Shown piece after piece: positions 25,631-42,970 of a stretch of DNA of 64,000 nt. Origin of the DNA: Clostridiales bacterium (GTDB lineage Bacteria > Bacillota > Clostridia > Saccharofermentanales > DTU023); contig SFGY01000007.1 in the NCBI GenBank assembly GCA_004556455.1, forward strand, positions 132,925 through 196,924. The letters are read 5' to 3'. A model generated the notes under the pieces. The model did not search any database. It worked only from the letters and a program-made list of their open reading frames with translations, and was not told the DNA's origin. The first letter of the stretch is position 1; each line of letters opens with the position of its first letter. Both the position numbers and the translations under genes were made by a program.

Positions 25631-25739
25631 CTCCCTCCTCTCATCCATGGCAGCATGGCAGCCGCCGTACCGCCGCAAAGCAGCGGTACAAGGGGATTTC
25701 GCAACAGTCGAAACCCACAGAAAGATTGGAGAAACGATC

Positions 25740-26924
25740 ATGAAAAACCTGAAAAAAAGCTGTGCTCTTTTTGTCCTCTTTGTCCTGCTCTGCAGCTGTC
25801 TCGGCGCCTGTGCGGGAGGAGCGACAGGTTCTGGAACCAGTACATCCACGAATTCAGCACCTGCTGGGAACTCTGATGTAGCAAGCTCTGCAGACTCTAC
25901 TCAAACAAAAAGCGAGAAGGGCGTAGCGGCTAAGACTGGCCCGGAGAATGCAGCGCCCGAAGCAGACGAGAGTAAATCAGCGAACCCTGAACCAGGCCAA
26001 AAGGAGCTTCACATCGGCATTTTGCAATTCGCTCAGCATCCCTCCCTGGATAACTGCCGAGAGGGGTTCTTAAAGGGTCTGGCAGAAAGCGGTTTCGTCG
26101 AAGGTCAGAATCTCACTGTCGACGTGCAGAATGCCCAGGCCGACATGGGGATTTGCGGCCAGATCGCTGCCCAGTTTGCCGGAAAAAAGCTTGACCTGAT
26201 CTGCGCCATTGCGACACCAGCCGCCATGAGTGCCTATAATGCCGCCCAGAGCAAGGGGATCCCCGTGATTTATACCGCCATCAGCGATCCGGTCGCAGCT
26301 CAGCTCGCCGACAGCGATAAAAAACCGCTGGGCGAGGTGACCGGGACGAGTGACCGTCTGCCCATCAAAGAACAGCTCTCCCTGATTCGTGAAGTCCTTC
26401 CTGATGCCAAAAACATCGGCATCCTCTTCAGCACCAGCGAAGCCAACTCCGTCTCCATGCTCGAAGTGTATAAAAAGCTGGCACCAGAGTACGGCTTTGA
26501 AATTGTCGATAGCGGCATCAGCAGCAGTTCCGATATTCCTCTGGCCTGCGATGCCCTTCTCAAAAAGGTCGACGCTCTCAGCAATCTCACCGACAATACC
26601 GTTGTCAACTCCCTGCCCCTCATTCTCAGCAAAGCCAAAGCAAAGAACATTCCCGTTTTTGGCTCAGAAATCGAGCAGGTTCGTCTGGGCTGTCTGGCCT
26701 CCGAAGGCATCGAATACATCTCCCTTGGCAGGCAGACCGGCGCCATGGCCGCAAAAATTCTCCGCGGTGAGGCCAAAGCTTCCGAGCTGCCCTACGAAGA
26801 AATCGCCGAAGCCTGCCTCAGCGTAAATCTCCAGGCCGCCTCTGACCTGGGCATTAAGTTCAGCGACGAGCTCCTCGCCCGTGCCGTAGAAAAATTCACT
26901 GAGATCAGCAGCGCAAATAAATAA
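25740..26924 (+). CDS. ABC transporter substrate-binding lipoprotein (ABC_sub_bind/PF04392-like), predicted tryptophan-related
   Basis: ATG 25740 follows TGGAGAAACGATC. Lipobox LLCSCLGAC, then a long S/T/A/E-rich tether. Core: HIGILQFAQHPSLDNCREGFLKGLAESGF...DLICAIATPAAMSAYNA. Confidence 0.8.
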   Translation: MKNLKKSCALFVLFVLLCSCLGACAGGATGSGTSTSTNSAPAGNSDVASSADSTQTKSEKGVAAKTGPENAAPEADESKSANPEPGQKELHIGILQFAQHPSLDNCREGFLKGLAESGFVEGQNLTVDVQNAQADMGICGQIAAQFAGKKLDLICAIATPAAMSAYNAAQSKGIPVIYTAISDPVAAQLADSDKKPLGEVTGTSDRLPIKEQLSLIREVLPDAKNIGILFSTSEANSVSMLEVYKKLAPEYGFEIVDSGISSSSDIPLACDALLKKVDALSNLTDNTVVNSLPLILSKAKAKNIPVFGSEIEQVRLGCLASEGIEYISLGRQTGAMAAKILRGEAKASELPYEEIAEACLSVNLQAASDLGIKFSDELLARAVEKFTEISSANK

Positions 26925-26997
26925 AACCGCTGCTCTGCTCATATCAGCTCACGCTCTGCGCCGCCAGCTTCCCCTGCGGCAGTATTAAACTCTTGAG

Positions 26998-27945
26998 GTG
27001 CTCATGGAGATTCTACTTGGCATTCTCGAACAAGGTCTGACCTATGCCTTTCTGGCCCTCGGCCTCTACTTCGCTTACATCATCCTTGACTTTCCCGACC
27101 TTACCGTGGATGGCAGTTTTCCCCTGGGCGCAGCTGTCAGCGTCTCCCTGAGCCTTGCCGGCCTGCCTCCCCTGCTGACACTGGTGGCCGCCGCGCTTGC
27201 CGGGGCCGCCGCTGGCCTCTGCACGGGCCTCATTCATGTCAAACTGCGGGTCAAGGATCTGCTTGCCGGTCTCATTATGCAAACGGCCCTCTATACGGTG
27301 AACCTCATGATTGCCGGACGATCCAACGTGCCGATTTTTGACCGGGATACCCTCTTCCAGAATACCCGTATGGATGCGTTTCTTCCCCCGTCCCTGCAGC
27401 CCCTGCGCGTGCTTATCATGATGCTGCCACTGGTCATTTTAATTAAGCTGGCCTGTGACGCCTTTCTCTCAACCCAGGCCGGTTTTCTTTTAAAGGCCGC
27501 AGGCGATAAGCCCAGCCTGGTCTGCAGTCTGGCGCATGATCCCGGCATGGTCAAAGTAGGAGGACTTGCTCTTGCCAATGCTCTGGTGGCGCTCTCCGGA
27601 GCCTGTGTCGCTCAGGAACAGCGTTTTTTTGAAATCTCCATGGGTACAGGCGCCATGCTCATGGGCCTGGCCTCAGTGATCCTTGGCCTGAAACTTCTGG
27701 AGAGTTTTGGCCGCTTGCGTGAGACCACGAAAGTCATTTTAGGTTCTGTGATCTACAAGGCAGTCATCGCCTTCGCCATTACTCTGGGCCTGCCGCCCAA
27801 CGCCTTAAAACTGCTGACGGCCCTGACCTTTCTCGTGATTCTGGTGGCCGGAAATGGGCAAATGGCTGCACATTTTCGTCGCCTCTTCGGCTTGAGCAAG
27901 ACCTGCACGGAAAGCAAAACCCAAAAGGAGGCCAAAGATGCTTGA
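26998..27945 (+). CDS. ABC transporter permease (partner of the PF04392 system)
   Basis: Polytopic membrane protein: LGILEQGLTYAFLALGLYFAYIILDFPDLTVDGSFPLGAAV. The start is GTG 26998 or ATG 27004. Confidence 0.8.
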   Translation: MLMEILLGILEQGLTYAFLALGLYFAYIILDFPDLTVDGSFPLGAAVSVSLSLAGLPPLLTLVAAALAGAAAGLCTGLIHVKLRVKDLLAGLIMQTALYTVNLMIAGRSNVPIFDRDTLFQNTRMDAFLPPSLQPLRVLIMMLPLVILIKLACDAFLSTQAGFLLKAAGDKPSLVCSLAHDPGMVKVGGLALANALVALSGACVAQEQRFFEISMGTGAMLMGLASVILGLKLLESFGRLRETTKVILGSVIYKAVIAFAITLGLPPNALKLLTALTFLVILVAGNGQMAAHFRRLFGLSKTCTESKTQKEAKDA

Positions 27946-28717
27946 ACTGCGTCACATTGACTTGAGCTACAATCGCGGAACTCCCAATGAAGTCCAGCTT
28001 TTTGAGGACTTTACTCTCAAGGTGGAAAGCGGACAATTTGTCAGCATCGTGGGCAGCAACGGTTCGGGAAAAACCAGCCTGCTCAATCTGCTGAGCGGCC
28101 GCTTCCGTCCCCAGAAGGGCGAAATTCTGATCGACGGCGAGGACGTGACGAAGCAGGCGGAGCACCTGCATTACCGCAGTCTCAGCCGGGTTTTTCAGGA
28201 TCCCTCCGCAGGAACTTCCCCCTCCCTGACGCTGCTGCAAAATCTTGCTCTTGCTGAACATAAAGGGCAGCGCTATGGCCTCAGACCCGGAGTTTCGCGC
28301 GAGCGCATGGATGATTACCGCAGCCAGCTGGCCGCCTTTGGGCTGGGTTTGGAAAACCGGCTCAACGACAAAGTGATAACCCTTTCCGGAGGTCAGCGTC
28401 AGGCCGTGGCTCTTCTGATGGCCACTATGACGCCGATCAAAATTTTGCTCCTGGACGAGCATACGGCCGCCCTGGACCCCAAAACCGCCGAAGCCATTAT
28501 GCAGCTGACCCATCAGATCATCCGTGAGAAAAAGCTGACCGCCCTGATGGTCACCCACAATCTGCGTTACAGTCTTCGTTATGGCGACCGTATTCTCATG
28601 ATGCACGGCGGCAAGATTCTTCTCGATGCGAACGGTGAAGCCAAAAAGGTACTGCAGCTGGATGATCTTCTCTCCCGCTTTTACGCGATCAGCATCGAGG
28701 CTGGCAACAGCATTTGA
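27938..28717 (+). CDS. ABC transporter ATP-binding protein
   Basis: GSNGSGKTSLLNLLSG, LSGGQRQAVALLMA, ILLLDEHTAALDP. Overlaps the permease stop. Confidence 0.9.
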   Translation: MLELRHIDLSYNRGTPNEVQLFEDFTLKVESGQFVSIVGSNGSGKTSLLNLLSGRFRPQKGEILIDGEDVTKQAEHLHYRSLSRVFQDPSAGTSPSLTLLQNLALAEHKGQRYGLRPGVSRERMDDYRSQLAAFGLGLENRLNDKVITLSGGQRQAVALLMATMTPIKILLLDEHTAALDPKTAEAIMQLTHQIIREKKLTALMVTHNLRYSLRYGDRILMMHGGKILLDANGEAKKVLQLDDLLSRFYAISIEAGNSI

Positions 28718-28741
28718 ACTCTATAAATTTTAGCTGCACCC

Positions 28742-28771
28742 TTGTCAGACTTTCCGTGCTTCAGGTATAAT
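28742..28771 (+). promoter_or_regulatory. Putative sigma-70 promoter of the lysine-riboswitch leader
   Basis: TTGTCA (28742-28747), N18, TATAAT (28766-28771). Confidence 0.6.
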
Positions 28772-28816
28772 TGGCTGGCAAAGCAAGCAAACTTACGCAA
28801 AAATCTAGCACAATCA

Positions 28817-28980
28817 ACAATAGAGGCGCGGCGTTTGGGTAGTCTTCCAACATTTCCGGACCGGGAAGGGAGATGAAGTCTTCGCCGCCGAAGAGGGAAA
28901 GACGGGTCCACGTCTTTTTTCTCTGGTGAAGGGCAGGAATTGTCCTCCACTGTCATGCCGGGGCATGGAGCGCTATGTGT
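28817..28980 (+). promoter_or_regulatory. Lysine riboswitch (L-box) aptamer
   Basis: AGAGGCGCGGCG...GGGTAG...GCCGCCGAAGAGGG...CCACTGTCATGCCGGGGCATGGAGCGCT reproduces the conserved L-box blocks, compared from memory with the T. maritima and B. subtilis lysC aptamers (GAGGCGC, GAGUAG, GCCGAAG, CCACUGUCA, GGAGAGC). Confidence 0.85.
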
Positions 28981-29009
28981 GAATCTTCACACATAGCCTT
29001 TTTCTTTTT
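28972..29009 (+). terminator. Intrinsic terminator of the lysine-riboswitch expression platform
   Basis: GCTATGTGTGAA-TC-TTCACACATAGC is a perfect 12-bp stem followed by CTTTTTCTTTTT. Its 5' arm contains the aptamer P1 3' strand (CTATGTGT, 28973-28980). Confidence 0.8.
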
Positions 29010-29039
29010 GCGGAACTTTTGTCTGAGAGCTTCTTCGCA

Positions 29040-29124
29040 AAGCTGTGCTCTGAGAAAAGCTGTGCTCCAGGCTGAGTTGTACTCAAAGCTGAGTTGTCTA
29101 AGCTTTTAAGCTACTTTTAAGCTA
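29040..29124. repeat. Three consecutive pairs of short tandem duplications in the kal leader
   Basis: AAGCTGTGCTC x2 (29040, 29057), GCTGAGTTGT x2 (29071, 29088), CTTTTAAGCTA x2 (29103, 29114). Confidence 0.7.
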
Positions 29125-29177
29125 TTAGTGAAACGCTATAAGTTAAAAAAAATAAAGTCATAAAGGAGAAACGAAGT

Positions 29178-29561
29178 ATGGAAGATGTTGTCATCCGTTT
29201 ACGCATGAGTCAGGGAGACGCCCACTATGGCGGAAATCTGGTCGATGGGGCCAAAATGCTGCAGCTTTTCGGCGACGTGGCGACCGAACTCCTCATCCGC
29301 CGCGACGGCGACGAAGGTCTCTTTGTTGCCTACGATCTCGTTGAATTTAAAGCTCCCGTGTATGCCGGAGATTATATTGAGGCCCGCGGCCGCATTGAAA
29401 AGGAAGGGAACAGCTCTCGTTCGATGAGCTTTGAAGCTTATAAAGTCATCACCGCCCGTCCGGATATCTCTGCTTCAGCCTGCGATGTCCTGGATGAGCC
29501 TCTGCTCGTCTGCCGTGCCCATGGCACCTGCGTCACACCAAAAACAAATCAGCGCAAATAA
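29178..29561 (+). CDS. kal: 3-aminobutyryl-CoA ammonia-lyase (hotdog fold)
   Basis: 127 aa. [82 protein letters not shown]. Lies in the kce/kdd context. Confidence 0.8.
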
Positions 29562-29599
29562 ACGTCCAATATTCATAAAGCAAAGTTCAAGGAGGTTTT

Positions 29600-30454
29600 A
29601 TGTCTGCTCAGAAAAGAAAAGTCATCATCACGGCTGCCATCAGCGGGGCCGAAGTCACCCAGGAAATGAACCCCAACGTTCCCTATACCCTGGAACAGTA
29701 TGTGCGTGAGGCAAAGGGCGCAGCACAGGCCGGCGCCTCCATCATCCATCTTCATGCGAGATTCGACGATGGCACGCCCACCCAGGACCGCGAGCGTTTC
29801 CGCGTCCTCATCGACGGCATCCGCGAGGCCTGCCCCGAGGTCATTATTCAGCCGTCCACCGGCGGCGCAACGGGCATGTCTGCTGACGAACGCCTGCAGC
29901 CCCTCGAACTTGATCCTGAGATGGCAAGCCTCGACGCCGGCACTTTAAACTTTGGCGGCGACGAGATCTTCGTCAATACCGAAAATATGATCATCGACTT
30001 TGCCGCCCGCATGCAGAAGCGCGGTGTGATGCCTGAAATCGAGGTTTTCGACAAGAGCATGATTGACATGGCTCTGCGCCTCCACCGCAAGGGCAAGATC
30101 GTTGCACCGCTGCACTTTAATCTGGTTATGGGCGTCAATGGCGGCATCACCGGAACCCCGCGCGACCTGGAATTCCTCGTGCACTCCCTGCCTGACGATG
30201 CCACCTTTACGGTTTCCGGCGTCGGCCAGAGCCAGCTCAGCATGAACGTCATGGCCATGCTTCTCGGCGGTCATGTGCGCGTCGGCTTTGAGGACAACCT
30301 GATGATGGATCGCGGCGTGCTCGCTGACTCCAACGCCCAATTTGTCGAGCGCATCGTGCGCATCGCCCATGAACTCAATCTGGAAATCGCCACGCCCTCA
30401 GAGGCCCGCGAAATCCTGCGCATTGACGAACACAAAAAGCTGCGCAGCATTTAA
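29600..30454 (+). CDS. kce: 3-keto-5-aminohexanoate cleavage enzyme (BKACE/DUF849)
   Basis: KVIITAAISGAEVT...PYTLEQYVREAKGAAQAGASIIHLHAR...IIQPSTGG...HVRVGFEDNL are typical BKACE motifs. RBS AAGGAGG. Confidence 0.88.
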   Translation: MSAQKRKVIITAAISGAEVTQEMNPNVPYTLEQYVREAKGAAQAGASIIHLHARFDDGTPTQDRERFRVLIDGIREACPEVIIQPSTGGATGMSADERLQPLELDPEMASLDAGTLNFGGDEIFVNTENMIIDFAARMQKRGVMPEIEVFDKSMIDMALRLHRKGKIVAPLHFNLVMGVNGGITGTPRDLEFLVHSLPDDATFTVSGVGQSQLSMNVMAMLLGGHVRVGFEDNLMMDRGVLADSNAQFVERIVRIAHELNLEIATPSEAREILRIDEHKKLRSI

Positions 30455-30529
30455 GCTCGATGACCGCTGGTCTCAGCCTTAAAAATATTTATATAAATTC
30501 TTATTAAAGAAATCAGGAGGAAAACATTT

Positions 30530-31564
30530 ATGGCCAAAGGCAACAAGTACGGCGCTCACCGCGTCATCGAACCGCAGGGACTGCTCCCTCAGGCAGCAAA
30601 AAAGATCGACAACACGATGGAAATTTATGATAACGAGATTCTCGTGGATGTCTCCGCTCTGAACATCGACTCGGCCAGCTTTCACCAGCTCTGGGAAGCC
30701 GCCGGTCACGATGAAGAAAAATTAAAACAGTCAATCCTCGATATCGTCGCCGAGCGCGGCAAAATGCAGAACCCTGTCACAGGTTCCGGCGGAATGCTCA
30801 TGGGCACCATTGCCCAGATCGGCAAGGACCTGAAGGATCGCGACGTCAAGGTGGGCGACCGCATTGCGACCCTGGTCTCCCTCTCAACCACTCCCCTGCA
30901 AATTAAAAAGATCCTGAAGGTTTACCCCCAGATCGACCGCGTCGAGATTGAGGGCCAGGCCATTCTCTTCGAGAGCGGCATCTACGCAAAGCTGCCGGAA
31001 GACATGAGTGAAAACCTCGCTCTCGCGGCTCTGGACGTGGCCGGCGCTCCAGCCCAGACGGCCAATATCGTCAAACCTAATGATTCTGTGCTGATTCTCG
31101 GCGCTGGCGGCAAGAGCGGTATGCTCATTGCTTATGAGGCCATGAAACGTGTCGGGCCCTGCGGCAATGTGGTTGGCATGAGCCATAATGACCGTCCGAA
31201 GGACACCCTCCTGAATAATCACTTTGTCCATCAATTCTTTGTCGCCGATGCGAAGAACCCCGTCGAAGTCCTTGACAAGGCCCTTGCCTGCAATAACGGC
31301 AAAGAGTATGACGTCGCCATCAACGTGGTCAACATCGACGGCACCGAGATGTCCAGCATCCTGCCCGTGCGCGACGGCGGCCTCGTTTACTTCTTCAGCA
31401 TGGCCACCAGCTTTACCCGCGCGGCTCTGGGCGCTGAGGGCGTCGGCAAGGATGTCACCATGATCATGGGCAACGGCTATACCAAAAACCATGCCGAAAT
31501 CACCCTCTCCGAACTCCGCGAGTGCCCTGCGCTGAAGGAGTATTTCGAAAAGCACTATCTCTGA
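30530..31564 (+). CDS. kdd: L-erythro-3,5-diaminohexanoate dehydrogenase
   Basis: 344 aa. GAHRVIEPQGLLPQAAKKIDNTMEIYDNEILVDVSALNIDSASFHQL, with a Rossmann VLILGAGGKSG. Lies between kce and kamA. Confidence 0.8.
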   Translation: MAKGNKYGAHRVIEPQGLLPQAAKKIDNTMEIYDNEILVDVSALNIDSASFHQLWEAAGHDEEKLKQSILDIVAERGKMQNPVTGSGGMLMGTIAQIGKDLKDRDVKVGDRIATLVSLSTTPLQIKKILKVYPQIDRVEIEGQAILFESGIYAKLPEDMSENLALAALDVAGAPAQTANIVKPNDSVLILGAGGKSGMLIAYEAMKRVGPCGNVVGMSHNDRPKDTLLNNHFVHQFFVADAKNPVEVLDKALACNNGKEYDVAINVVNIDGTEMSSILPVRDGGLVYFFSMATSFTRAALGAEGVGKDVTMIMGNGYTKNHAEITLSELRECPALKEYFEKHYL

Positions 31565-31630
31565 TCTGAGCGCGTGGCGAGGGCAGGCCTATTGCACACG
31601 TAAGACACAGATCCCACGGATCACACGGGA

Positions 31631-31658
31631 GCGAGGAGATGCAAGCCACCCTCCTCGC
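31631..31658 (+). other. Intra-operon hairpin between kdd and kamA
   Basis: GCGAGGAG-N12-CTCCTCGC, an 8-bp stem without a clear U-tract. Confidence 0.4.
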
Positions 31659-31753
31659 CTCCCCTTTATCACTCCCGGAGCAGAAACAGCGATCTTTTGA
31701 ACGCAAATGCAGTCCGAGCTCGCTGTCGCTTTCGGGTGAAGGAGAACCTTAAG

Positions 31754-33052
31754 ATGAATGCCAACGAAAAATACATCAACCGCAAGGGAGAAGCCCGCCG
31801 TCGCGAGCTTTTTCCCGACGTGTCCGACAAAGACTGGAATGACTGGCACTGGCAGGTCAGCCACCGCATTGACAGTATCGATCAACTGAAAAAACTCCTG
31901 CCCATGAGTGAAGAGCAGCTGGCCGGGGCCGAAAAGGCTCTGCAACTCTTTCGCATGGCGATCACCCCTTATTATCTGACCTTGATTGACCCCGAAGATC
32001 CCTTTGATCCGGTGAGGCAGCAATCCGTGCCGACCGCCGATGAGGCCTGGCGCGCCCCCGAAGATCTCGTCGACCCCCTGGAAGAGGACGAAGATTCTCC
32101 GGTTCCCGGCCTGACGCATCGTTATCCGGACCGCGTACTCTTCCTCATCACCGACATGTGCTCCATGTACTGCCGCCACTGCACCCGCCGCCGCCTCGCC
32201 GGCCAGAAGGATGGCGCCAGGAGCCAGGCGGATATCGATGCCTGCATCGACTACATCCGCAATAAGCCGATGGTGCGCGATGTCCTGCTTTCCGGCGGCG
32301 ACGCTCTGCTCATGGGCGATGAACGCCTCGAATACATTCTGCGCAAGCTGCGCGAGATCGATCACGTGGAGGTCATACGCCTCGGCAGCCGCACCCCGGT
32401 CGTCCTGCCCCAGCGCATCACGCCTGAACTTTGCGCCATGCTGAAAAAATACCATCCGGTCTGGCTCAACACGCATTTCAATCACCCCAATGAAATCACC
32501 CCCGAGAGCCAGGAGGCCTGCGCGCGCCTGGCCGACGCGGGCATTCCTCTGGGCAACCAGTCCGTCCTGCTGCGCGGCGTCAACGACTGTGTTCATGTCA
32601 TGCGCAAGCTTGTGAACGGCCTTGTTTACATTCGCGTGCGTCCTTACTACATCTACCAGTGCGACCTCTCGCTGGGACTTTCGCACTTCCGCACCCCGGT
32701 CTCCAAAGGCATCGAGATCATTGAAGGTCTGCGTGGCCATACCTCCGGCTTCTGTGTACCCACCTTTGTCGTGGACGCTCCGGGCGGCGGCGGTAAAATT
32801 CCCGTCATGCCGGACTACGTCATTTCGCAGAACCCCGGGCATGTCGTCCTGCGCAACTACGAGGGGGTCATCACCACCTACAAAGAGCCGGAAACTTATC
32901 ACCAGGACTGCCACTGCGAGGTTTGCAGCGGCCAGCGCAAGGTCATCAACGTCGGCGTCTCCAAGCTTCTGGCCGGAGATGAGATGTGCATTGAACCGAA
33001 AGTTCTCCTGCGCAAAGTCAAAGTCGATGACGAACACAATTATTACGAATAA
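31754..33052 (+). CDS. kamA: L-lysine 2,3-aminomutase (radical SAM)
   Basis: ATG 31754 follows GAAGGAGAA. ...[12 protein letters not shown]..., [12 protein letters not shown] (CxxxCxxC), [26 protein letters not shown]. Confidence 0.92.
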
Positions 33053-34115
33053 ACGGCCCACATCCGCGGAACTCCTTGAGCTCACGGGGGTCCGTGAGCT
33101 CTCTTCTCTCGCCTTCATCGGTCTTTCCAAGAATGCGGGCAAGACGAGCAGTCTTAACCACCTGCTCATGGCCTGTATGAATGAAGGTTTTGAACGGCCT
33201 CTGGCCCTGACCTCCATCGGCCGCGATGGCGAGGAAAGCGACGTCGTCACCCAGACGGAAAAGCCCCGCATCTATGCCCCGGCAGGGAGTCTGCTGCTCA
33301 CGGCGACCGGTTCTCTGCAGCGCTCCGACGCCCTGCTGGACATTCTTGAATTAAGTGGGATATATACGGCTTTTGGCGAAATTGCCCTCTGCCGTGTGCT
33401 CATTTCCGGCTATGTCGAACTGGCCGGGCCCTCCATGGCTCAGGAGCTGAAACTGTGCGAAGCCCTTTTGCGCCGGACTGCGCCGGACGCCCTTTATCTC
33501 ATCGACGGCGCGCTGTCGCGGCGTTCACCTGCCGGTGGAGGCCTCAGTGAAGCGGCTGTGCTGGCCTTTAATGCCGGCCACAGCGGGCGCATCTCAGAGC
33601 TGCTGCACTCCTGCCGGCACGCTCTGCGGCTGTTAACCCTGCCAGCCGTTGATCTGGATCTTCAAAGGAAATTGGCCTCTGCCCTCGGAGAGAATCAGGA
33701 AGATCTTCGTGCACTTGCCCTGGGAAAAAACGAAAGCTTCCGCCCGCTTCGCCTACATACGCTCCTGGGCGGTGACGAACTGCGCGATTTCGTCGACAGC
33801 TCCGATCGCGGACTTATGTTGCGAGGAGCCCTCACGGACCGCAGCGCTACGGCCCTGCTAAAAGCGCGGAGGGCACGCTCTTTCCGCCTCATTGCCGAGG
33901 ACGGCACGCGTATTTTTCTCAGCCCCGCCAAGCTGAGAGAGCTGGAAACTGCGGGCATCGAACTGAACGTTCTCTGCCCCCTGCGCCTGCTCTGGCTGGC
34001 CTTTAATCCCCGCCTGGATGACGGCAGTCCCCTCTCGTCCACGGAGATTCTGCCCCGGCTTCAGGCCGAATTGCCCCTGCCGGTTTTCGATCTCGGCCCG
34101 GCCCTCATGGTCTAG
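33027..34115 (+). CDS. Uncharacterised protein with N-terminal P-loop-like motif, conserved position between kamA and kamDE
   Basis: The first in-frame ATG (33027) overlaps the kamA end by 26 nt. [20 protein letters not shown] resembles a MobB-like deviant Walker A. The rest has no motif I recognise. Confidence 0.6.
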
Positions 34116-34138
34116 ATCCCAGTCGGCCCGCTTGGCCA

Positions 34139-34216
34139 GGGAGTTTAGACCGAGAAGTTTAGGCCGAAAGTTTAGGCCTGGAATTTCAGGCCGGGAAGTT
34201 TAGAAAGGAGTTTATC
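34139..34216 (+). repeat. Six tandem copies of a 12-14 bp unit (rAGTTTAGrCCG) filling the intercistronic spacer
   Basis: AGTTTAG (variants ATTTCAG, AGTTTAT) starts at 34142, 34156, 34169, 34183, 34197 and 34209. The last copy merges with RBS AAAGGAG and start GTG 34217. Confidence 0.8.
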
Positions 34217-35806
34217 GTGCTGATTTGCAGCTTAGCGGAAAAACAGGCTCTGCTCCTCGATGAAATCCTGGAAAACTGTACCTGCCGCAGTCCTCAGGGA
34301 CGCGATGTGAAAGATGAACTGCAGTTTTACTCGGACACCGAGCGCGACGAGCTGATTCATGAGTTTTCTGTGATCGCCCGGCTGCGCCGTTCCCTGCAGG
34401 AAAAAAAGGCGCGCTGGCGCGAGGCCGAAACGCTGCTCAGCCGCTTTCGCCGCAATGACGAAAGCCTCTCCCGTCTGGAAAAAGGTCTGCTCCCTGACGA
34501 GGCCGAACTCTTTGAAATCAAGCGCTCTCTGGGACTCTTCCGTCTGCTCGCCTATTACGACGATTTGCTGTGCGATGCGGACATTCGTCTGACTGATCTC
34601 TCCGAGGCTGAGGCTCTGCTCAATCCTCCGGGTCGCCGGGAAGAGGGTTTTCACATCTACTCCGCCTGGTCCGATGAACTGCGCCACGTACGTGAGGAAC
34701 GTAAGCTTTTAGAGGAAAAGCTTTCCCTCCTGCTGCGCGAACGCGAGGAACTCAGCAGCCAGGCCGCTCGTGAAGCCCTTTTTGAGCAGAGAGCGGAGCT
34801 GCTGAACCGACAGAAAAAGCTGGAGGATAAGGAGCTTGAGCGCGTCGCCGCCGGTCTGCGCGACTGGCTGCCCGCCCTGCGCGAAAATTTTGCCGCTCTC
34901 GGCCGCTTCGATTTTCGCCTGGCCAGGGCCGAGCTGGCTGAACGCTGGCAGGCCCCCATTCCGGAAATCCTTGAGCCCGGTTCCGGCAGCCGGATCACCG
35001 GCGCCTATCACCCTCTGCTGGCCGCAGAACTTATGGACAGAGGACTTTCCTTTACCCCGCAGTCGATCTTTCTGGGCGAAGGGAGCGTCGTCATCAGCGG
35101 CGCCAATATGGGCGGGAAAAGCGTGGCTCTCATGTGTTTCCTGCTTTGCCTCTTACTCACCCAGCTGGCCATCTGTCCCCCTTGCGAGGCTCTGTCCACA
35201 GATCTCTACGACTTTTTTTCCTATCTGACCGAAGCCGAAGGAGAAGCCCGCCTGGGTCTTTCCTCTTTTGCTCAGCAGGCCGTGCGCATTCGCGAGGTGC
35301 TGCGTCTTTCCCAGAGCACTCGCGGACTCGTCGTCATGGACGAAGCCTGCCGCGGCACCAACCCCGATGAGGCCACCGCCATGCTGCAGGCCATCTGCCG
35401 CATCTTCGCCCGCAGCAAGAGCCGCCTTCTTTGCGCGACCCACTATCGCATGCCCCATGAAAAGGGCATCCGGCACTATCGCATTCGCGGCCTGAAGCCC
35501 GAAGCAGCAACAGAAGAGCGCGTGACCACTGAACAGTCCATGGTCACCCGGAAGAAAGAGGATTTCGCCAACGCGTTGCGCGCCGCCCCGGGAGACGAAA
35601 AAAAGAGCAAGTCGGATCTGGAAGATGAAAAAGCCATCGCCGCCATTCATGAGGCCATGGATTATACTCTGGCCCCCCTGGAAGAAGCGGAAGATATCCC
35701 GGCAGCAGGTCTCTGCATCGCCGAAAAAATGGGGATTGATGCCGTCTTTCTCAGGGAGATGCGACAAATTTACGAGGAAAATCGCGAGCCTGGCGAAGCG
35801 CCGTAA
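34217..35806 (+). CDS. MutS-family ATPase paralog (core/clamp plus domain V only; no mismatch-binding or Smr domain)
   Basis: VVISGANMGGKSVALMCF (MutS Walker A TGPNMGGKS), VVMDEACRGTNPDEA (DELGRGT) and LLCATHY (ATHY). The N-terminal ~270 aa are coiled-coil rich. Confidence 0.8.
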   Translation: MLICSLAEKQALLLDEILENCTCRSPQGRDVKDELQFYSDTERDELIHEFSVIARLRRSLQEKKARWREAETLLSRFRRNDESLSRLEKGLLPDEAELFEIKRSLGLFRLLAYYDDLLCDADIRLTDLSEAEALLNPPGRREEGFHIYSAWSDELRHVREERKLLEEKLSLLLREREELSSQAAREALFEQRAELLNRQKKLEDKELERVAAGLRDWLPALRENFAALGRFDFRLARAELAERWQAPIPEILEPGSGSRITGAYHPLLAAELMDRGLSFTPQSIFLGEGSVVISGANMGGKSVALMCFLLCLLLTQLAICPPCEALSTDLYDFFSYLTEAEGEARLGLSSFAQQAVRIREVLRLSQSTRGLVVMDEACRGTNPDEATAMLQAICRIFARSKSRLLCATHYRMPHEKGIRHYRIRGLKPEAATEERVTTEQSMVTRKKEDFANALRAAPGDEKKSKSDLEDEKAIAAIHEAMDYTLAPLEEAEDIPAAGLCIAEKMGIDAVFLREMRQIYEENREPGEAP

Positions 35807-35907
35807 GGTCTCGCTGAAACAATAAATAATCAAACAATAGAGAATAGTAAAAAAATAAATAGTAAATTCTCTGATATCTGAACAAGATATCAGAACAAGG
35901 AGAAAGC

Positions 35908-37572
35908 ATGGCTGAATTACATTTAGATGGACAAAAAGTCTGTGAGGCCAGGGAGGCTGCCGCAGCCATCGTGCGCCAGACCGTTGAAGAACTGGATGAC
36001 CGCTCCACGGTGACCGTGGAGCGCACCGTCCTGCGCCTGATGGGGATTGACGGCATCAATGACGCCGGGGTTCCCCTGCCGAACCTCGTCATCGAGCAGC
36101 TGCAGGAGGAAGGGCTCCTGGGACAGGGCGCTTCGTACTGGATGGGGCGGGCCTGTCTCTCCCTGGGCAAGTCGCCGCAGGAGGTTGCTGAACTCTGTGC
36201 CCAGGGCGATTTTTCTTTTCGCCAGCTGGAACCTGTCGACGCCTTTCAAATCCGGGTCTGGGGCGAAGGCGAAGCCGAAAAGAGCCTCAAACGCATCCTG
36301 GCCTCCCGCAGCAGGCGCGACGAATATTTAAAGCGCTTCGGAGATCACGGCGGACCGCTGCTCTATGTCATCGTGGCCACGGGCAATATTTACGAAGATA
36401 TCGTCCAGGCCAAGGCGGCCGCCAAACAGGGCGCCGACGTCATCGCCGTGATTCGCACCACCGGCCAGAGCCTGCTCGACTACGTGCCCTATGGCGCTAC
36501 CACTGAGGGCTTCGGCGGAACCATGGCGACCCAGGAGAACTTCCGTCTCATGCGCAAAGCTCTGGATGAGAGTGGCGAAGAGCTGCATCGCTACATCCGT
36601 CTCTGCAACTACTGCTCCGGCCTCTGTATGCCGGAAATCGCTGTCATGGGTGCCTTTGAACGCCTCGACGTGATGCTGAACGACGCTCTCTACGGTATTC
36701 TTTTCCGTGACATCAACATGCAGCGCACGCTCATCGACCAGCGCTTCTCGCGGCTCATCAACGGCGTCGCCGGAGTCATCATCAACACGGGCGAAGATAA
36801 CTACCTCACCACGGCCGATGCCTTCGAAGAAGCCCACACGGTGCTGGCCTCGCAGTTCATCAACGAGCAGTTCGCCCTCGATGCCGGCATGCCGGAAGAA
36901 CAGATGGGTTTAGGCCACGCCTTTGAGATGGATCCCGAGCTGGAAAATGCCTTTCTCTACGAGTTCGCTCAGGCTCAGATGGCCCGGCAGATTTTCCCCC
37001 ATGCGCCGCTGAAATACATGCCCCCGACCAAATATATGACGGGCAATATTTTCCGCGGCCACATTCAGGATGCCCTCTTCAATATCATCACGGTGATCTC
37101 CAAACAGCGGATACACCTCCTCGGCATGCTCACCGAAGCCATCCACACGCCCTTTATGTCAGACCGCGCCCTCTCCATTGAAAATGCCCGCTATATCGCC
37201 CGCAGCCTCAGGGACTTCGGCGACGACATCAGCTTTAAGCCGGGCGGGATCATGGAAGAGCGAGCTGCCTTTGTTCTGGATCAGGCCCTGGAGCTGCTGC
37301 GCAATATCCAGCGCGACGGCCTCTTCCGTACCCTCGAGCTGGGCCGCTTTGCCGATATCAAACGGCCTCTGGACGGTGGCAAAGGCCTTGCCGGGGTCTT
37401 CCACAAAGAAGAAAATTACCTCAATCCTTTCCACGACCTCTTTATGAGCGCGGCCGAAGACAATATGCAGCAAACGCGCGCAGCCCGTGAAGAGCAGCAA
37501 GGCAAAGCGGCGAACTGGGTCGCCGAAGAACGTGAGATACAAACCCCGGCGGAAGGAGGATGCACGAAATGA
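35908..37572 (+). CDS. kamD: Beta-lysine (D-lysine) 5,6-aminomutase alpha subunit
   Basis: 554 aa. RBS AAGGAGA. ERTVLRLMGIDGI..., IYEDIVQAKAAAKQGADVIAVIRTTGQSLLDYVPYGATTEGFGGT, followed by the B12-binding subunit gene. Confidence 0.85.
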   Translation: MAELHLDGQKVCEAREAAAAIVRQTVEELDDRSTVTVERTVLRLMGIDGINDAGVPLPNLVIEQLQEEGLLGQGASYWMGRACLSLGKSPQEVAELCAQGDFSFRQLEPVDAFQIRVWGEGEAEKSLKRILASRSRRDEYLKRFGDHGGPLLYVIVATGNIYEDIVQAKAAAKQGADVIAVIRTTGQSLLDYVPYGATTEGFGGTMATQENFRLMRKALDESGEELHRYIRLCNYCSGLCMPEIAVMGAFERLDVMLNDALYGILFRDINMQRTLIDQRFSRLINGVAGVIINTGEDNYLTTADAFEEAHTVLASQFINEQFALDAGMPEEQMGLGHAFEMDPELENAFLYEFAQAQMARQIFPHAPLKYMPPTKYMTGNIFRGHIQDALFNIITVISKQRIHLLGMLTEAIHTPFMSDRALSIENARYIARSLRDFGDDISFKPGGIMEERAAFVLDQALELLRNIQRDGLFRTLELGRFADIKRPLDGGKGLAGVFHKEENYLNPFHDLFMSAAEDNMQQTRAAREEQQGKAANWVAEEREIQTPAEGGCTK

Positions 37573-38396
37573 GCGGCGGACTTTACAGTATGGAGAAACG
37601 CGATTTCTCCACCGAACTTGACCTCACAAAACTAAAGCCCTACGGGGACACGATGAATGACGGCAAGGTACAGCTTTCCTTTACCCTGCCCGTCGCCGAC
37701 AATCCCACCTCCGAAGAAGCGGCCAAGCAGGTGCTGCTCAGCATGGGGCTGAAAGAGCCTCTCATCACCTGTCACCAGGCGCTCGACAAAAACTTCACTT
37801 TCTTTGTCGGCTACGGCCAGCTGGAAAAGACGCTGGATTACACACAAATTCACGTCAAAGCCGTCGAAGTGGACGTGCTCAGTATGGAAGAGACCGATCA
37901 GTTCATCCGCACGAAACTGGGGCGGCCCATTCGTGTTCTCGGCGCTTCAACCGGCACCGACGCTCATACCGTAGGCATCGACGCGATCATGAACATGAAG
38001 GGCTATGCCGGACACTACGGTCTGGAGCGCTATGGCATGATCGAAGCCCTCAACCTGGGCAGCCAGGTCCCTAACGAAGACTTTATCCGCAAAGCCCTGG
38101 AATACAGAGCGGATGTCCTTCTCGTCTCTCAGACGGTCACGCAGAAGAATGTCCACATCCAAAACATCACCGAGCTGATCGAGCTTCTGGAAGCTGAGGG
38201 CCTGCGAGAAAAATTCCTCGTGATTATCGGCGGCCCCCGCATCAGTCACGAGCTGGCCAAAGAACTGGGCTGCGATGCGGGCTTCGGCCCCGGCTCCTAT
38301 GCCGACAACGTCGCCAGCTACATCGTGGAAGAACTGGCCAAGCGTAAGGAGGCTGGCCTTTTCAGTGTCGGCGACCTCTCTAAAGAACAGAATTAA
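37569..38396 (+). CDS. kamE: Beta-lysine 5,6-aminomutase beta subunit (B12- and PLP-binding)
   Basis: ATG 37569 lies 9 nt after GGAGG. LKPYGDTMNDGKVQLSFTLPV, then the base-off B12 motif GASTGTDAHTVGIDAIMNMKGYAG (DxHxxG). Confidence 0.88.
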   Translation: MSGGLYSMEKRDFSTELDLTKLKPYGDTMNDGKVQLSFTLPVADNPTSEEAAKQVLLSMGLKEPLITCHQALDKNFTFFVGYGQLEKTLDYTQIHVKAVEVDVLSMEETDQFIRTKLGRPIRVLGASTGTDAHTVGIDAIMNMKGYAGHYGLERYGMIEALNLGSQVPNEDFIRKALEYRADVLLVSQTVTQKNVHIQNITELIELLEAEGLREKFLVIIGGPRISHELAKELGCDAGFGPGSYADNVASYIVEELAKRKEAGLFSVGDLSKEQN

Positions 38397-38460
38397 ATAG
38401 AACAAGAGCTGAAGTCTCCGCAGCCTCTTGCTGCGCTGCACTTAGAAAGGAAAAAAGAAG

Positions 38461-40461
38461 ATGAGAGAAGAACTTTGGCGCGCTTCCGCGGAGCGCCGCG
38501 AAAAATCGCAGATGATGGCCTTCATGAAGCAGCTGAAAGCCCGGCACGGACTGGAGTTTGAGGATTACCGCGAACTTCACGATTGGAGTATTAAAGAGCC
38601 TGAACTCTTCTGGGACGAGCTCTGGAAGTTCTTTGAGATTAAAACCTCCAGACCTTACGACAAAGTTGTCGACGATCTCCACAAATTTCCCGGAGCGGAG
38701 TGGTTCCCCGGGGCCATGCTGAACTACACGGAGAATATGCTGCGCGAACGCAAAGGAGATGAACCCGCCCTCATCTTCCGCGGTGAAGATTCCGAGCGCC
38801 GCGTCATTTCCTGGAGCGAACTGCGCTCCCAGGTTTTCCGCATCGCCGAAGCCCTGCGCGCCGAAGGTCTGAAAGCCGGCGATACTGTGGCCGCTTATAT
38901 GCCCAACCTCCCCGAAACCATCATCGCTATGCTCGCCGCAGCCGCAGTCGGCGTGGTCTGGTGCTCCTGCGCCACGGATATCGGCCCTCAGGCCGCCACG
39001 GATCGTCTCGGTCAGGTCGAGCCCAGGGTGCTCTTTACGACCGACGCCTACTACTACAAAGGAAAAACTTTTGATGTCTCCGCCAAGGCAGCCCAGCTCG
39101 CCCAGAATATGCCGAGCGTGAAACGCGTGGTTTACACCCATTACGCCGGAGATGTGGATGCTGCCGTCGCTGCCACCCCCAACGCCCTGTGCTGGGAGGC
39201 TTTCCTCGAACGTGGTGATGAGAGTCGCTTCCGCTACGAGCAGGTTCCCGCCTCCCATCCGCTGGTCGTCATGTTCTCCTCCGGAACCACCGGCAAGCCC
39301 AAGTGCATGGTGCAGTCGCACGCTGGCCTGCTCATCAACCAGCTGAAAGAAGTCGTTTTGCATCATGACATCAGCGAAAAAGACCGCATGCTCTACATCA
39401 CGACCTGCTCCTGGATGATGTGGAACTGGATGCTCTCCGCCCTGGGCGCGGGCTGCTCCCTTGTCCTTTACGACGGCAACCCCTCCTGGCCCGAAACGGC
39501 GGCCATCTGGAAAATCCTTGAAGAAGAAGCCGTCACCTGCTTTGGTCTCTCCGCTTCGTACATTCACGCCCTCATGGCCGAAGATTTTGTGCCGAAAGAT
39601 CACGCCGATCTCAAATCTCTGCGCTGCATCTCCCAGACCGGCTCAGCCCTCTCCGACGCGGGTTTCCACTTTGTCTACGACAAGATCAAAAAAGACCTGC
39701 ACTTTTCCTCCATTGCCGGTGGGACGGATATCAACGGCTGCTTTAATATCGGCAACCCGCTGAACCCTGTTTACAGCAACGAACTGCAGGGCCCGGGCCT
39801 GGGCGAAGCCGTCTTTGCCTATAACGACAAGGGCGAGCGCGTTTACGACGAACAGGGCGAACTCGTCTGTGAGTTGCCCATTCCCGCCATGCCGCTCTAC
39901 TTCTGGAACGACCCCGAGGGCAAACGCTATCACGCGGCCTATTTTGAGGTTTATCCCGGCGTCTGGCGTCACGGCGACTACATTGAAATGCACAGCGATA
40001 CCGGCGGTGTCACCTACTACGGTCGCTCCGACTCCGTCCTGAAACCCTCCGGCGTGCGTATCGGCACCTCCGAAATTTACGCTCAGGTGCAGAAAGTCGA
40101 CGCCGTGCTCGACAGCCTCGCCATCGGCCAGCAGTACCACGACGACCAGCGCGTGCTCCTCTTTGTTCAGATGAAGGAAGGCCGGAGCCTCAGCCCCGAG
40201 ATTGCCAAAGAGATTCGCACAACCCTGCGCAAAAATGCCTCGCCGCGCCACGTTCCTGCGGTCATTCTCGAAGTCAGCGACATTCCCCGGACCCTGAACG
40301 GCAAAATTGTCGAAAGCGCCGTCACCAACATCGTCAATCACCGTAAAGTCACCAATCGCGACGCCCTGCAGAATCCGCAGAGCCTCGACGAATACGAAAC
40401 GCTGCTGCCGCTTCTGGAAGATAAAGGCAGCGAAGCCGAGCGTGAGGCCAGGCTCTTCTGA
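38461..40461 (+). CDS. aacS: Acetoacetate--CoA ligase (acetoacetyl-CoA synthetase, AMP/PPi-forming)
   Basis: 666 aa. LWRASAERREKSQMMAFMKQLKARHGLEFEDYRELHDWSIKEPELFWDELWKFF is the characteristic AacS N-terminus. AMP-binding motif FSSGTTGKPKCMV. Confidence 0.85.
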   Translation: MREELWRASAERREKSQMMAFMKQLKARHGLEFEDYRELHDWSIKEPELFWDELWKFFEIKTSRPYDKVVDDLHKFPGAEWFPGAMLNYTENMLRERKGDEPALIFRGEDSERRVISWSELRSQVFRIAEALRAEGLKAGDTVAAYMPNLPETIIAMLAAAAVGVVWCSCATDIGPQAATDRLGQVEPRVLFTTDAYYYKGKTFDVSAKAAQLAQNMPSVKRVVYTHYAGDVDAAVAATPNALCWEAFLERGDESRFRYEQVPASHPLVVMFSSGTTGKPKCMVQSHAGLLINQLKEVVLHHDISEKDRMLYITTCSWMMWNWMLSALGAGCSLVLYDGNPSWPETAAIWKILEEEAVTCFGLSASYIHALMAEDFVPKDHADLKSLRCISQTGSALSDAGFHFVYDKIKKDLHFSSIAGGTDINGCFNIGNPLNPVYSNELQGPGLGEAVFAYNDKGERVYDEQGELVCELPIPAMPLYFWNDPEGKRYHAAYFEVYPGVWRHGDYIEMHSDTGGVTYYGRSDSVLKPSGVRIGTSEIYAQVQKVDAVLDSLAIGQQYHDDQRVLLFVQMKEGRSLSPEIAKEIRTTLRKNASPRHVPAVILEVSDIPRTLNGKIVESAVTNIVNHRKVTNRDALQNPQSLDEYETLLPLLEDKGSEAEREARLF

Positions 40462-40639
40462 GCCAAAGCCGCAGTGGCTCTGTGGAGTGAGCGCTTTCAG
40501 TGATCATGCCCAATAGGTTCCAGCCTGTGGCCTTATAGCCAGAACCGAGGACTTGATCTGCGGAGAAAACGCTTTCAGCGATTATTACTGACGGGAAAAA
40601 ATATGCGGCAACATTCAATGCCGTTTGTCCGCATCTGAG

Positions 40640-40753
40640 TGTTATAATGGCGCGTGATAGGCTTGTGCAGTGGTAATGCGCCAGCTTCCGCGCCGACCTC
40701 AGTGCCGGCGGGACCAGAATGCGCCCTGACAAGATCATGTCGGGCGCATTTTT
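40640..40753 (+). promoter_or_regulatory. Extended -10 promoter plus attenuator-like leader upstream of hppA
   Basis: TGT-TATAAT at 40640-40648. GGCGCG (40649) can pair with AATGCGCC (40675-40682). A second AATGCGCCC (40718-40726) pairs with GGGCGCATT (40742-40750), followed by TTTTT. Confidence 0.5.
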
Positions 40754-40852
40754 GTGTGAGTCGGTCGTGCTGCAACTGTACAAACCGCCTTGTTTTTTCC
40801 ACCAGCTCGGCAGAAAAGCCGAAGCTAATCAGTAGAATAGGATGATGTATAA

Positions 40853-42970
40853 ATGAGTACCATGATTCTCTTCGGCGTCGTGGCCCTGACCCTGCTTTAT
40901 GTGGTTTCAGAGGTCCTGTCCATCAAGAAGATGGACGAAGGTACGCCCGAAATGAAAGAACTTGCCGGGATAATCCGTTCCGGGGCTGATGCCTTTCTTA
41001 AAACGGAATACAAAATGATCACGCTGGTTGTCGTCGTACTGGCTCTGGTCTTTTCCTGCTTTATCGAACGCTGGAGCGGGCTCAGCTTTCTCTTAGGCGC
41101 AACCATGAGCAGCTGCGCCTGCATCCTTGGCATGATCAGCGCGACCTATGCCAACGTGCGGACCTCCAATGCCGCCAGAACCACCCTGAACATCGGCGAA
41201 ACAGTGCGCGTCGCCATGCGCGGCGGCAGCATCAGCGGCCTCTCCGTTCAGGCCTTTGGTCTGTTCGGCGTACTTCTGCTCTTTGTCATTCGCGGCGGCG
41301 TCGATCCCGAAGCCACCAGCAGTGGCCTTCTTGTCAGCCTGCCCTGCAATCCTGATCTCATGATCATTGCCACCTATTCGCTCGGCTGCTCCGTGGTCGC
41401 CATGTTTAACCGCGTGGCCGGTGGAAACTATACCAAGGCCGCCGATATCTCTTCCGACATTCTGGCCAAAATCCGCCACGATCTTCCTGAAGATGACAGC
41501 CGCGTCCCCAACGTTATCGCAGACTTCATCGGCGACAACGTCAACGATATCGCCGGCAACTGCAGCGACCTGCTGGAAAGCTTTGTCGCAACAATTTCCG
41601 CCAGCTTCATGATCGCCGTGGGCATCTATCGCGGAAACGAGGCGCTCATCCCCTTTGAGACCTTCAACGCGACCATTCTTTTCCCCATTCTGCTCGCGGG
41701 CGGCGGCCTTCTCAGCTGCCTCATCGGTATGTTTGTCGGCACTCACCGCAAACTCAGCAACAATCCTTCCCGTGACCTCGACATGGCGAACTGGATTTCT
41801 TCCGGCCTGACGATCCTCTTTGGTCTCTGTTCCTCTTACTTCGTTTTCAATAACGAAAAACTCTACGACAGCTTCAAGATCGGCTGGCTCAGCCCCTGGA
41901 TTTCTGCCGTTTTAGGCATTCTCAGCGGCGTCGCCATCGGTGTGATCACCGAGTACTACACGAGCACCGACTTTAAGCCGACCCGTGAGCTGGCCCGCAT
42001 CGCTCCTGAAGGCGATGCCTTTATCGTCACCAAGGGCGACGCCATCGGCTCTCGCTCCTGCCTCCTGCCCATCGTCGTCATCGGCGTGGCGCTCTTCATT
42101 TCCGGCAAACTCTGCGGAACTTACGGCCTGGCCGTTTCCGCTCTGGGCATGCTCTCCTTTGTCGGCGCGACCGTCTCCATCGACGCCTTTGGCCCGATCT
42201 CCGATAACGCCGGCGGCATCGCCGAATCCGCTCATTTGCCCGCCGAAGTGCGTGTCATTACCGATAAGCTCGACGCTGTCGGCAACACGACCGCTGCCAT
42301 CGGCAAAGGCTTCGCCATCGGTTCCGCCGCTTTCGCCACCGTCTCCCTGATCGTGGCTTATGTCGGCAGCTACACACCGCTGGGAGCTGAACCCGTCCTG
42401 AACTTCGCCTCCTTCGTCGTCATTGCCGGCGGCATTATAGGCGGTGCTCTGATCGAATACTTCTGTGCCATTCTCACCGACAATACCATTGAATCTGCCA
42501 AGCTGATGGCCGATGAAGGCGACAAACAGATGTCTGTCCCCGGCGTACTCGAAGGCACCAAACACGCCGATTACAACACAATGATCACCCTCGCAGCCCA
42601 GCAGGCTCTCAAGAAAATGCTGGCCCCTTCGCTGCTGGCTCTGACCATCCCGCTCCTCGGCGGCATCCTCTTCGGCGTCGAATTTGTCGGCGGCCTCCTT
42701 CTGGGCGCGACCATCGTCGCCATTCCGCGGGCTATCTTCATGGGTAACTCCGGCGGCGCCTTCGACAATGCCAAGAAGTATATCGAATCCGGCGAACTCG
42801 AAGGCCACGGCAAAGGCAGCCCGGCGCACAAAGCCTCCGTTACCGGCGATACCATCGGCGACACCCGCAAAGACGTCGTGGGCGTGGCTCTCGACATTTT
42901 CATCAAGATGATGTCGACCGTCGCCAACACCCTCGCCCCGATCTTCGCCCGCATCAGCCTGATGAAATAA
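40853..42970 (+). CDS. hppA: Membrane-integral ion-translocating pyrophosphatase (K+-dependent-type GNTTAA signature)
   Basis: 705 aa and about 16 TM segments. NYTKAADISSDILAKI, PEDDSRVPNVIADFIGDNVNDIAG...DLLESF, DAVGNTTAAIGKGFAIGSAA, GGAFDNAKKYIE, VTGDTIGDTRKD. Confidence 0.9.
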   Translation: MSTMILFGVVALTLLYVVSEVLSIKKMDEGTPEMKELAGIIRSGADAFLKTEYKMITLVVVVLALVFSCFIERWSGLSFLLGATMSSCACILGMISATYANVRTSNAARTTLNIGETVRVAMRGGSISGLSVQAFGLFGVLLLFVIRGGVDPEATSSGLLVSLPCNPDLMIIATYSLGCSVVAMFNRVAGGNYTKAADISSDILAKIRHDLPEDDSRVPNVIADFIGDNVNDIAGNCSDLLESFVATISASFMIAVGIYRGNEALIPFETFNATILFPILLAGGGLLSCLIGMFVGTHRKLSNNPSRDLDMANWISSGLTILFGLCSSYFVFNNEKLYDSFKIGWLSPWISAVLGILSGVAIGVITEYYTSTDFKPTRELARIAPEGDAFIVTKGDAIGSRSCLLPIVVIGVALFISGKLCGTYGLAVSALGMLSFVGATVSIDAFGPISDNAGGIAESAHLPAEVRVITDKLDAVGNTTAAIGKGFAIGSAAFATVSLIVAYVGSYTPLGAEPVLNFASFVVIAGGIIGGALIEYFCAILTDNTIESAKLMADEGDKQMSVPGVLEGTKHADYNTMITLAAQQALKKMLAPSLLALTIPLLGGILFGVEFVGGLLLGATIVAIPRAIFMGNSGGAFDNAKKYIESGELEGHGKGSPAHKASVTGDTIGDTRKDVVGVALDIFIKMMSTVANTLAPIFARISLMK

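Follow-up and report, generated by a model that had tools for sequence, protein, structure and literature searches.

A predicted lysine-ON riboswitch at the head of a lysine fermentation operon in an uncultured Clostridia lineage

We analysed a 64,000-nucleotide (nt) stretch of a Clostridiales genome assembly (GCA_004556455.1, contig SFGY01000007.1), referred to here as the window, in which an L-box lysine riboswitch stands between a promoter-like site and a nine-gene lysine fermentation operon that begins with kal. The 3' strand of the aptamer's P1 helix is shared with the 5' arm of an intrinsic terminator. From this geometry, together with the physiology of the operon, we read the riboswitch as a transcriptional lysine-ON switch, in which lysine would permit read-through into the genes for its own catabolism, and we put the probability of this reading at roughly 85%.

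The riboswitch leader and the operon behind it

The leader comprises the following features; L001 denotes the kal locus of the closest genome to the window, the uncultured Clostridia metagenome-assembled genome (MAG) CAMJYM01, whose Kal is 97% identical (among the best 80 kal loci, described below).

28742-28771, + strand: sigma-70-like promoter, TTGTCA (-35), 18-nt spacer, TATAAT (-10); 11 of 12 consensus matches
28813-28983, + strand: L-box aptamer, five-helix junction P1-P5 (RF00168; RNAalifold; identity to L001)
28817-28823, + strand: P1 5' strand ACAAUAG (folding; Rfam alignment)
28858-28862, + strand: GGACC in loop L2, complementary to 28905-28909 (L2-L3 kissing interaction)
28905-28909, + strand: GGUCC in loop L3, complementary to 28858-28862 (L2-L3 kissing interaction)
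28972-28997, + strand: intrinsic terminator hairpin, 5' arm 28972-28982, 3' arm 28987-28997; 11 base pairs (bp), loop AUCU
28973-28980, + strand: P1 3' strand CUAUGUGU, G28977 bulged; shared with the terminator 5' arm
28998-29009, + strand: terminator U-tract CUUUUUCUUUUU, read from the sequence
29010-29162, + strand: untranslated spacer from the terminator to the ribosome-binding site, with short direct repeats, apparently unconstrained (50.7% identity to L001)
29163-29168, + strand: ribosome-binding site AAGGAG, 9 nt 5' of the kal ATG, read from the sequence

The regulated genes follow directly, with family matches and their cut-offs in brackets.

29178-29561, + strand: kal, 3-aminobutyryl-CoA ammonia lyase, the first regulated gene (NF052388, 194 bits; cut-off 160)
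29600-30454, + strand: kce, 3-keto-5-aminohexanoate cleavage enzyme (NF052387, 409 bits; cut-off 382)
30530-31564, + strand: kdd, L-erythro-3,5-diaminohexanoate dehydrogenase (NF052381, 271 bits; cut-off 200)
31697-33052, + strand: kamA, lysine 2,3-aminomutase (TIGR03820, 618 bits; cut-off 525; match from residue 43)
33108-34115, + strand: kamB, lysine 5,6-aminomutase reactivase subunit, start approximate (NF052386, 263 bits; cut-off 210)
34217-35806, + strand: kamC, reactivase ATPase (NF052383, 337 bits; cut-off 300)
35908-37572, + strand: kamD, lysine 5,6-aminomutase alpha subunit (NF052384, 877 bits; PF09043)
37560-38396, + strand: kamE, lysine 5,6-aminomutase beta (B12-binding) subunit (NF052385, 390 bits; cut-off 280)
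38461-40461, + strand: AMP-forming acetoacetate-CoA ligase, which probably closes the operon (NF002937, 865 bits; TIGR01217, 809 bits)

The lysine riboswitch was the sole Rfam family matched in the 64-kb window. RF00168 aligned over its full model (positions 1-182) to 28813-28983 on the + strand with 68.5 bits (E 9e-16), against a gathering score of 30 bits, and was recovered identically under permissive filters. The first-pass annotation, made from the letters of the window, had placed an aptamer with all L-box blocks at 28817-28980; the covariance model extends these boundaries slightly, and in the Rfam alignment the core blocks AGAGGNGC, GCCGAA, CUGG, CUGUCA and GGAGNGCUA are indeed present. 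The element is almost certainly a lysine riboswitch, with lysine as the ligand expected from its family.

The promoter-like site at 28742-28771 has no counterpart on either strand within 28400-29400, and its first base coincides with the start that had been given for the element; transcription would begin near 28778-28780. The same scan found no promoter-like site between the terminator and kal, so expression of the operon would depend on read-through of the terminator.

P1 joins AUAG (28820-28823) to CUAU (28973-28976) and ACA (28817-28819) to UGU (28978-28980), the pairs that the first-pass annotation had drawn and had already recognized as shared with the terminator arm. The Rfam alignment renders the helix as CAAUAG/CUAUGU, with two outer pairs non-standard, and under both readings the 3' strand lies wholly within the terminator 5' arm. 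Positions 28973-28980 can therefore pair alternatively with 28817-28823, forming P1, or with 28989-28996, forming the terminator. The terminator itself reads GCTATGTGTGA-ATCT-TCACACATAGC in the DNA, followed by CTTTTTCTTTTT up to 29009, and GCUAUGUGUGA-AUCU-UCACACAUAGC in the RNA, with 11 perfect pairs, five of them G-C, and a 4-nt loop; a G+C-containing hairpin followed by CTTTTTCTTT, the signature of intrinsic termination, thus lies between the aptamer and kal. Its location and U-tract are as originally called, but the stem had been described as a perfect 12-bp helix and is in fact 11 bp, because a twelfth pair would shrink the loop to an impossible 2 nt.

KamA, KamB, KamC, KamDE, Kdd, Kce and Kal all pass NCBIfam equivalog cut-offs, and on these assignments kal-kce-kdd-kamABCDE provides the whole 3,5-diaminohexanoate pathway of lysine fermentation, in keeping with the lysine degradation operon that had been recognized downstream. 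The kamA and kamB matches begin at residues 43 and 163, the latter covering residues 163-491 of the open reading frame (ORF) at 32622-34115, so both true starts should be internal to their ORFs; that of kamA probably lies about 40 codons inside 31697-33052.

Immediately upstream, an ATP-binding cassette (ABC) transporter operon occupies 25647-28717 and encodes a PF04392 binding protein, a permease and an ATPase. We found no + strand terminator between the stop codon of the ATPase gene (28717) and 28972, so transcripts of this operon probably run into the L-box and become subject to it.

Two further pairings of the 5' leader involve the terminator region. The leader segment UUACGCA...UAGC (28793-28809) could form an 11-bp helix, G-U pairs included, with the terminator 5' arm (28972-28982), and CGCAAAAA (28796-28803) is complementary to UUUUUGCG (29005-29012) at the end of the U-tract, a complementarity also present in L001. 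We rejected the first as a functional element, one pair being lost in L001 without compensation, and regard the second as unsupported, its check having covered the close relative L001 only. Both are probably chance, and either could modulate termination.

Overlap of P1 and terminator across kal-linked L-boxes

A scan for Kal with one genome per species yielded a best 80 kal loci (L001-L080), of which seven carry an Rfam L-box directly 5' of kal (L001, L002, L003, L013, L056, L072 and L080); all seven are annotated as Clostridia, Tissierellia or related Bacillota lineages. No L-box was found within ~3 kb upstream of kal in the other 73, which include Bacteroidales, Eremiobacterota/Vulcanimicrobiota and many Clostridia, so that, judging by these loci, most lysine fermenters must regulate kal otherwise or from further upstream.

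Together with the window, the seven loci form a set of eight leaders sharing one layout. Taking the strongest terminator in each, the 5' arm starts in all eight within the conserved GCGC of J5/1, 3-7 nt before the P1 3' strand, and of the first six nucleotides of that strand the terminator takes in 4-6; in the window the offset ranges from -1 (core stem) to -7 and all six are covered. At least five unrelated terminator sequences share this arrangement. The RNAalifold consensus of the eight leaders consists of P2-P5, recovered with compensatory changes, and the terminator, whose base (columns 178-187 with 212-221) is 88.8% paired and includes five pairs altered on both sides; the observed covariation score was reached in 0 of 500 shuffles, and slid registers were 31-61% paired.

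As a control, 120 metagenome L-boxes were pulled by a core-motif pattern with their context ignored, and 62 of them have a terminator by a strict finder applied equally to both sets (it replaced a looser version, accepting any T4 run and the first hairpin, which produced spurious negative offsets). The layout of an OFF switch is seen in 58 of the 62, with the terminator 5' arm beginning at a distance of 8-117 nt downstream of the P1 3' strand. The one clean overlap, L129, in which AGCGCU...GGCGCC followed by seven U's overlaps the aptamer 3' end, is also the sole kal locus among the 120, with kal and kce downstream (73% and 72% identity). Three apparent overlaps were rejected as ON switches: L108 and L170 have poor U-tracts, and the overlap in L123 arises from a misplaced J5/1 motif. 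P1 and terminator thus overlap in all nine kal-linked L-boxes (the eight leaders and L129), with 5' arms that start 3-7 nt before the P1 3' strand; the nine represent about six independent lineages; across the sequences compared, the overlap layout and association with kal predict each other (9/9), and the layout is near-absent elsewhere.

P1 is also weaker in the kal-linked set. Calculated on a 9+9-nt construct, its median energy is -3.7 kcal/mol in the nine ON cases (window, L001, L002, L003, L013, L056, L072, L080 and L129) versus -5.3 kcal/mol in 48 OFF-type metagenome L-boxes (one-sided Mann-Whitney p = 0.004, a test that ignores kinship among the ON sequences).

One of the rejected controls has an arrangement of its own. 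In the lysC-linked metagenome L-box L170 (520-640), a hairpin of -16 kcal/mol overlaps the aptamer 3' end and is followed by an improper U-tract (TATTATCT); this platform may be translational or otherwise non-terminator.

Within the aptamer, AGAGGNGCG, GCCGAA, the GG of J3/4, CUGUCA and UG..GC.CU are invariant across the eight kal-linked leaders, as is AAUAG of the P1 5' strand. All eight also carry complementary stretches of 4-7 nt at the same positions of the L2 and L3 loops, with differing sequences, each individually weak against shuffles. We consider it very unlikely that the aptamer is an L-box specificity variant that recognizes, in place of L-lysine, a compound such as beta-lysine or a different intermediate of the pathway. 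It is true that lysine isomers are the earliest dedicated intermediates of the operon, that other riboswitch families include variant classes of changed specificity, and that the kal-linked aptamers score 57-82 bits in Rfam, somewhat below the best L-boxes; however, the RF00168 core blocks are all present and unvarying in this set, and the junction is indistinguishable from that of OFF-type L-boxes pulled with the same core pattern.

Comparison with the closest relative places the strongest constraint on the aptamer, which is 97.7% identical to that of L001, against 94.5% for kal, 90.3% for the end of the upstream gene and 81.4% for the promoter and 5' leader (spacer, 50.7%). Only four aptamer positions differ, and two of these, C28861->U and G28906->A, convert the C28861-G28906 pair of the L2-L3 kissing interaction to U-A, a compensatory change. 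These observations bear on a second alternative, that the hairpin serves mainly as a constitutive terminator or attenuator of the upstream ABC operon, with the aptamer a non-functional relic and kal governed by other means. Upstream transcripts would run into the hairpin, the only + strand terminator found after 28717, and the 73 of 80 kal loci without a nearby L-box must use other regulators. We nonetheless hold this to be quite improbable, since the aptamer is more constrained than its flanks (97.7% versus 81-94.5%) and shows a compensatory change in a tertiary pair, the aptamer-terminator overlap recurs with covariation in about six independent lineages, and the spacer scan detected no alternative promoter.

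Folding energetics, proposed mechanism and predicted direction of the response

Because the terminator 5' arm contains the entire P1 3' strand, P1 and the terminator are mutually exclusive, and the lysine-ON logic would follow from this exclusion. The two states are far from equal in energy: the minimum-free-energy fold of the leader contains the terminator (-86.7 kcal/mol), whereas a fold with P1 forced reaches -68.4 kcal/mol, leaving the terminator state ~18 kcal/mol more stable. In folds of the growing chain P1 is marginal, and terminator pairs appear once 28992 has been transcribed. Given the stability of the terminator state, we infer that control must be kinetic, with the decision made during transcription.

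The same platform is known from the Bacillus subtilis pbuE (ydhL) adenine switch, a transcriptional ON switch in which the P1 3' strand lies in the terminator 5' arm; it has no separate antiterminator, its terminator is thermodynamically dominant, and its decision is kinetic and co-transcriptional. The window switch likewise has its P1 3' strand within the terminator 5' arm, no intervening antiterminator element and a dominant terminator, although the aptamers are unrelated (a purine three-way versus a lysine five-way junction) and ligand and regulated function differ. Conversely, it shares the RF00168 fold and conserved core with the characterized OFF switches of B. subtilis lysC and Escherichia coli lysC but departs from their layout: its terminator begins inside the aptamer, in contrast to the 8-117 nt downstream seen in the 58 OFF-layout controls, and no separate antiterminator partner lies downstream, so the logic would be opposite. 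The genes behind it belong to catabolism and not to biosynthesis or uptake, and P1 of the ON set is on average weaker.

We propose that transcription would begin ~35 nt 5' of the aptamer and that P2-P5 and the L2-L3 kissing loop would fold first. J5/1 and the P1 3' strand (28970-28980) would be the final part of the aptamer to emerge and would double as the terminator 5' arm; only 7-17 nt further on, the terminator 3' arm would follow. In the absence of lysine, nothing would hold the weak P1 with its bulge (4+3 bp), the far more stable terminator would form and RNA polymerase would release a transcript of ~225 nt at the U-tract (28998-29009). At high lysine, ligand in the five-way junction would lock P1 and J5/1, the bottom 4-5 terminator pairs (GCUAU/AUAGC), which adjoin the U-tract, could not form in time, and polymerase would continue across the 150-nt spacer and transcribe kal-kce-kdd-kamABCDE and the gene for acetoacetate-CoA ligase. 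The ligand would not win at equilibrium; it would need to hold P1 and J5/1 for ~17 nt, from completion of P1 to completion of the terminator stem.

The ON logic, suggested in the first-pass annotation from the shared strand, gains support from the P1/terminator geometry, the layout common to 9/9 kal-linked L-boxes, its counterpart in 58/62 controls and the covariation of the terminator base, all of which bear on architecture, with the response to lysine deduced from it. Several points weigh against this reading. P1 is outside the minimum-free-energy fold at every chain length of the growing-chain folds, and before the terminator 3' arm exists the pairing of 28972-28982 with 28793-28799 and 28806-28809 of the leader beats P1 by 2.5 kcal/mol. 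The window open to the ligand, ~17 nt, is very short, and effective switching would depend on a high lysine level or on a pause in transcription, neither of which is visible. Across the eight leaders P1 is 78.6% paired in register and shows no covariation, an absence that is uninformative because the P1 5' strand is nearly invariant. The ON examples include the close pairs window/L001 and L002/L003 and so count as ~6 independent cases, not nine, and the searchable literature yielded no experimental study of a natural lysine-ON or kal-linked L-box.

The least probable alternative, and a very remote one, is a conventional lysine-OFF switch, in which lysine would increase termination at 28997-29009, for instance through release of a terminator-blocking segment, and so repress the operon: characterized natural lysine riboswitches are all repressors and are still treated as such in reviews and engineering papers (PMC11477304, PMC10974012), and the leader helix 28793-28809/28972-28982 could serve as a ligand-independent antiterminator before the terminator 3' arm exists, but stabilizing P1 cannot favour a terminator whose 5' arm is the P1 3' strand, the terminator offset of -1 to -7 (+8 to +117 in the OFF controls) leaves no space for the required antiterminator, the alternative helix loses one pair uncompensated in L001, and lysine repressing its own degradation would make no physiological sense.

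As for the lysine-ON reading more broadly, the evidence tips slightly towards the kal-linked L-boxes being a coherent natural lysine-ON subclass, defined by a terminator that invades P1 and also J5/1 in the binding pocket, with its start 3-4 nt upstream of the P1 3' strand in each lineage, by a P1 systematically weaker than that of OFF switches and by a decision window of <20 nt. If so, the subclass would respond to high lysine only, as a threshold-type inducer of fermentation, and the window locus would be a ready-made natural lysine-ON part.

Precedent and genomic setting

Activating L-boxes ahead of lysine catabolic genes have been predicted before, as the first-pass annotation had noted. 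Barrick & Breaker 2007 (PMC2258182), citing Rodionov 2003, state that certain ON-logic lysine riboswitches bury pieces of terminator stems, and Mukherjee 2017 (PMC5584792) calls L-boxes upstream of kal/kce positively regulated in Clostridium sticklandii, Fusobacterium nucleatum and Thermoanaerobacter. The switch is not new in kind, ON lysine riboswitches on catabolic genes having been predicted since 2003. Compared by published description, the predicted cases of Thermoanaerobacter tengcongensis, F. nucleatum and C. sticklandii share its aptamer class, pathway and terminator-burying logic. They head kal alone, kal-kce or an operon led by a pspF-type regulator gene, whereas the window switch heads a complete nine-gene operon, and its host, from an uncultured Clostridia lineage, also differs. 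What is new here is a quantitative overlap rule for kal-linked L-boxes, covariation support for it and the conclusion of kinetic control; the finding neither opens a new class nor settles a long-standing question.

Two other systems offer parallels. The glycine riboswitch of the gcvT operon is likewise an amino-acid ON switch that induces catabolism of its own ligand (PMC11477304), and differs in belonging to another aptamer class, often being tandem and having been experimentally validated. Engineered lysine-ON switches (Zhou & Zeng 2015; Lys-A variants, PMC10974012) have the same intended lysine-dependent activation but were laboratory-selected from OFF switches and are translational, whereas the window presents a natural transcriptional design. 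Metabolic engineers evolved such artificial switches because known natural ones repress (PMC10974012). With promoter, aptamer and overlapping terminator inside 270 nt of leader and the full target operon attached, the window is a clean test case, and since the operon encodes the lysine-to-butyrate/acetate route of gut and anaerobic-digester Clostridia, the switch is relevant to the timing of that pathway's expression.

The spacer contains three 17-nt repeat copies at 29032-29094 (core AAAGCTG[T/A]G) and two exact 11-nt copies of CTTTTAAGCTA at 29103-29124. Its alignment to L001 has 65 gap columns, the window being ~65 bases longer than this relative with 97% Kal identity, and the repeats seem to have expanded recently, by slippage or duplication, in a leader free of constraint. 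A second RNA element in 29010-29162 was considered and rejected, Rfam matches there being at chance level only and the repeats a window-specific expansion.

Antisense to kamA, a 560-residue ORF at 31589-33271 (- strand) matches nothing in Pfam and resembles a shadow ORF.

At the operon's end, the AMP-forming acetoacetate-CoA ligase gene takes the place of the usual butyryl-CoA:acetoacetate CoA-transferase; no AtoAD-type transferase was found among the ORFs scanned at 29178-42970, the remaining window not having been searched. About 390 nt past the ligase gene, at 40853-42970, lies a gene for a membrane ion-translocating pyrophosphatase, which could recover energy from the pyrophosphate released by the ligase, as a variant end of the lysine fermentation pathway.

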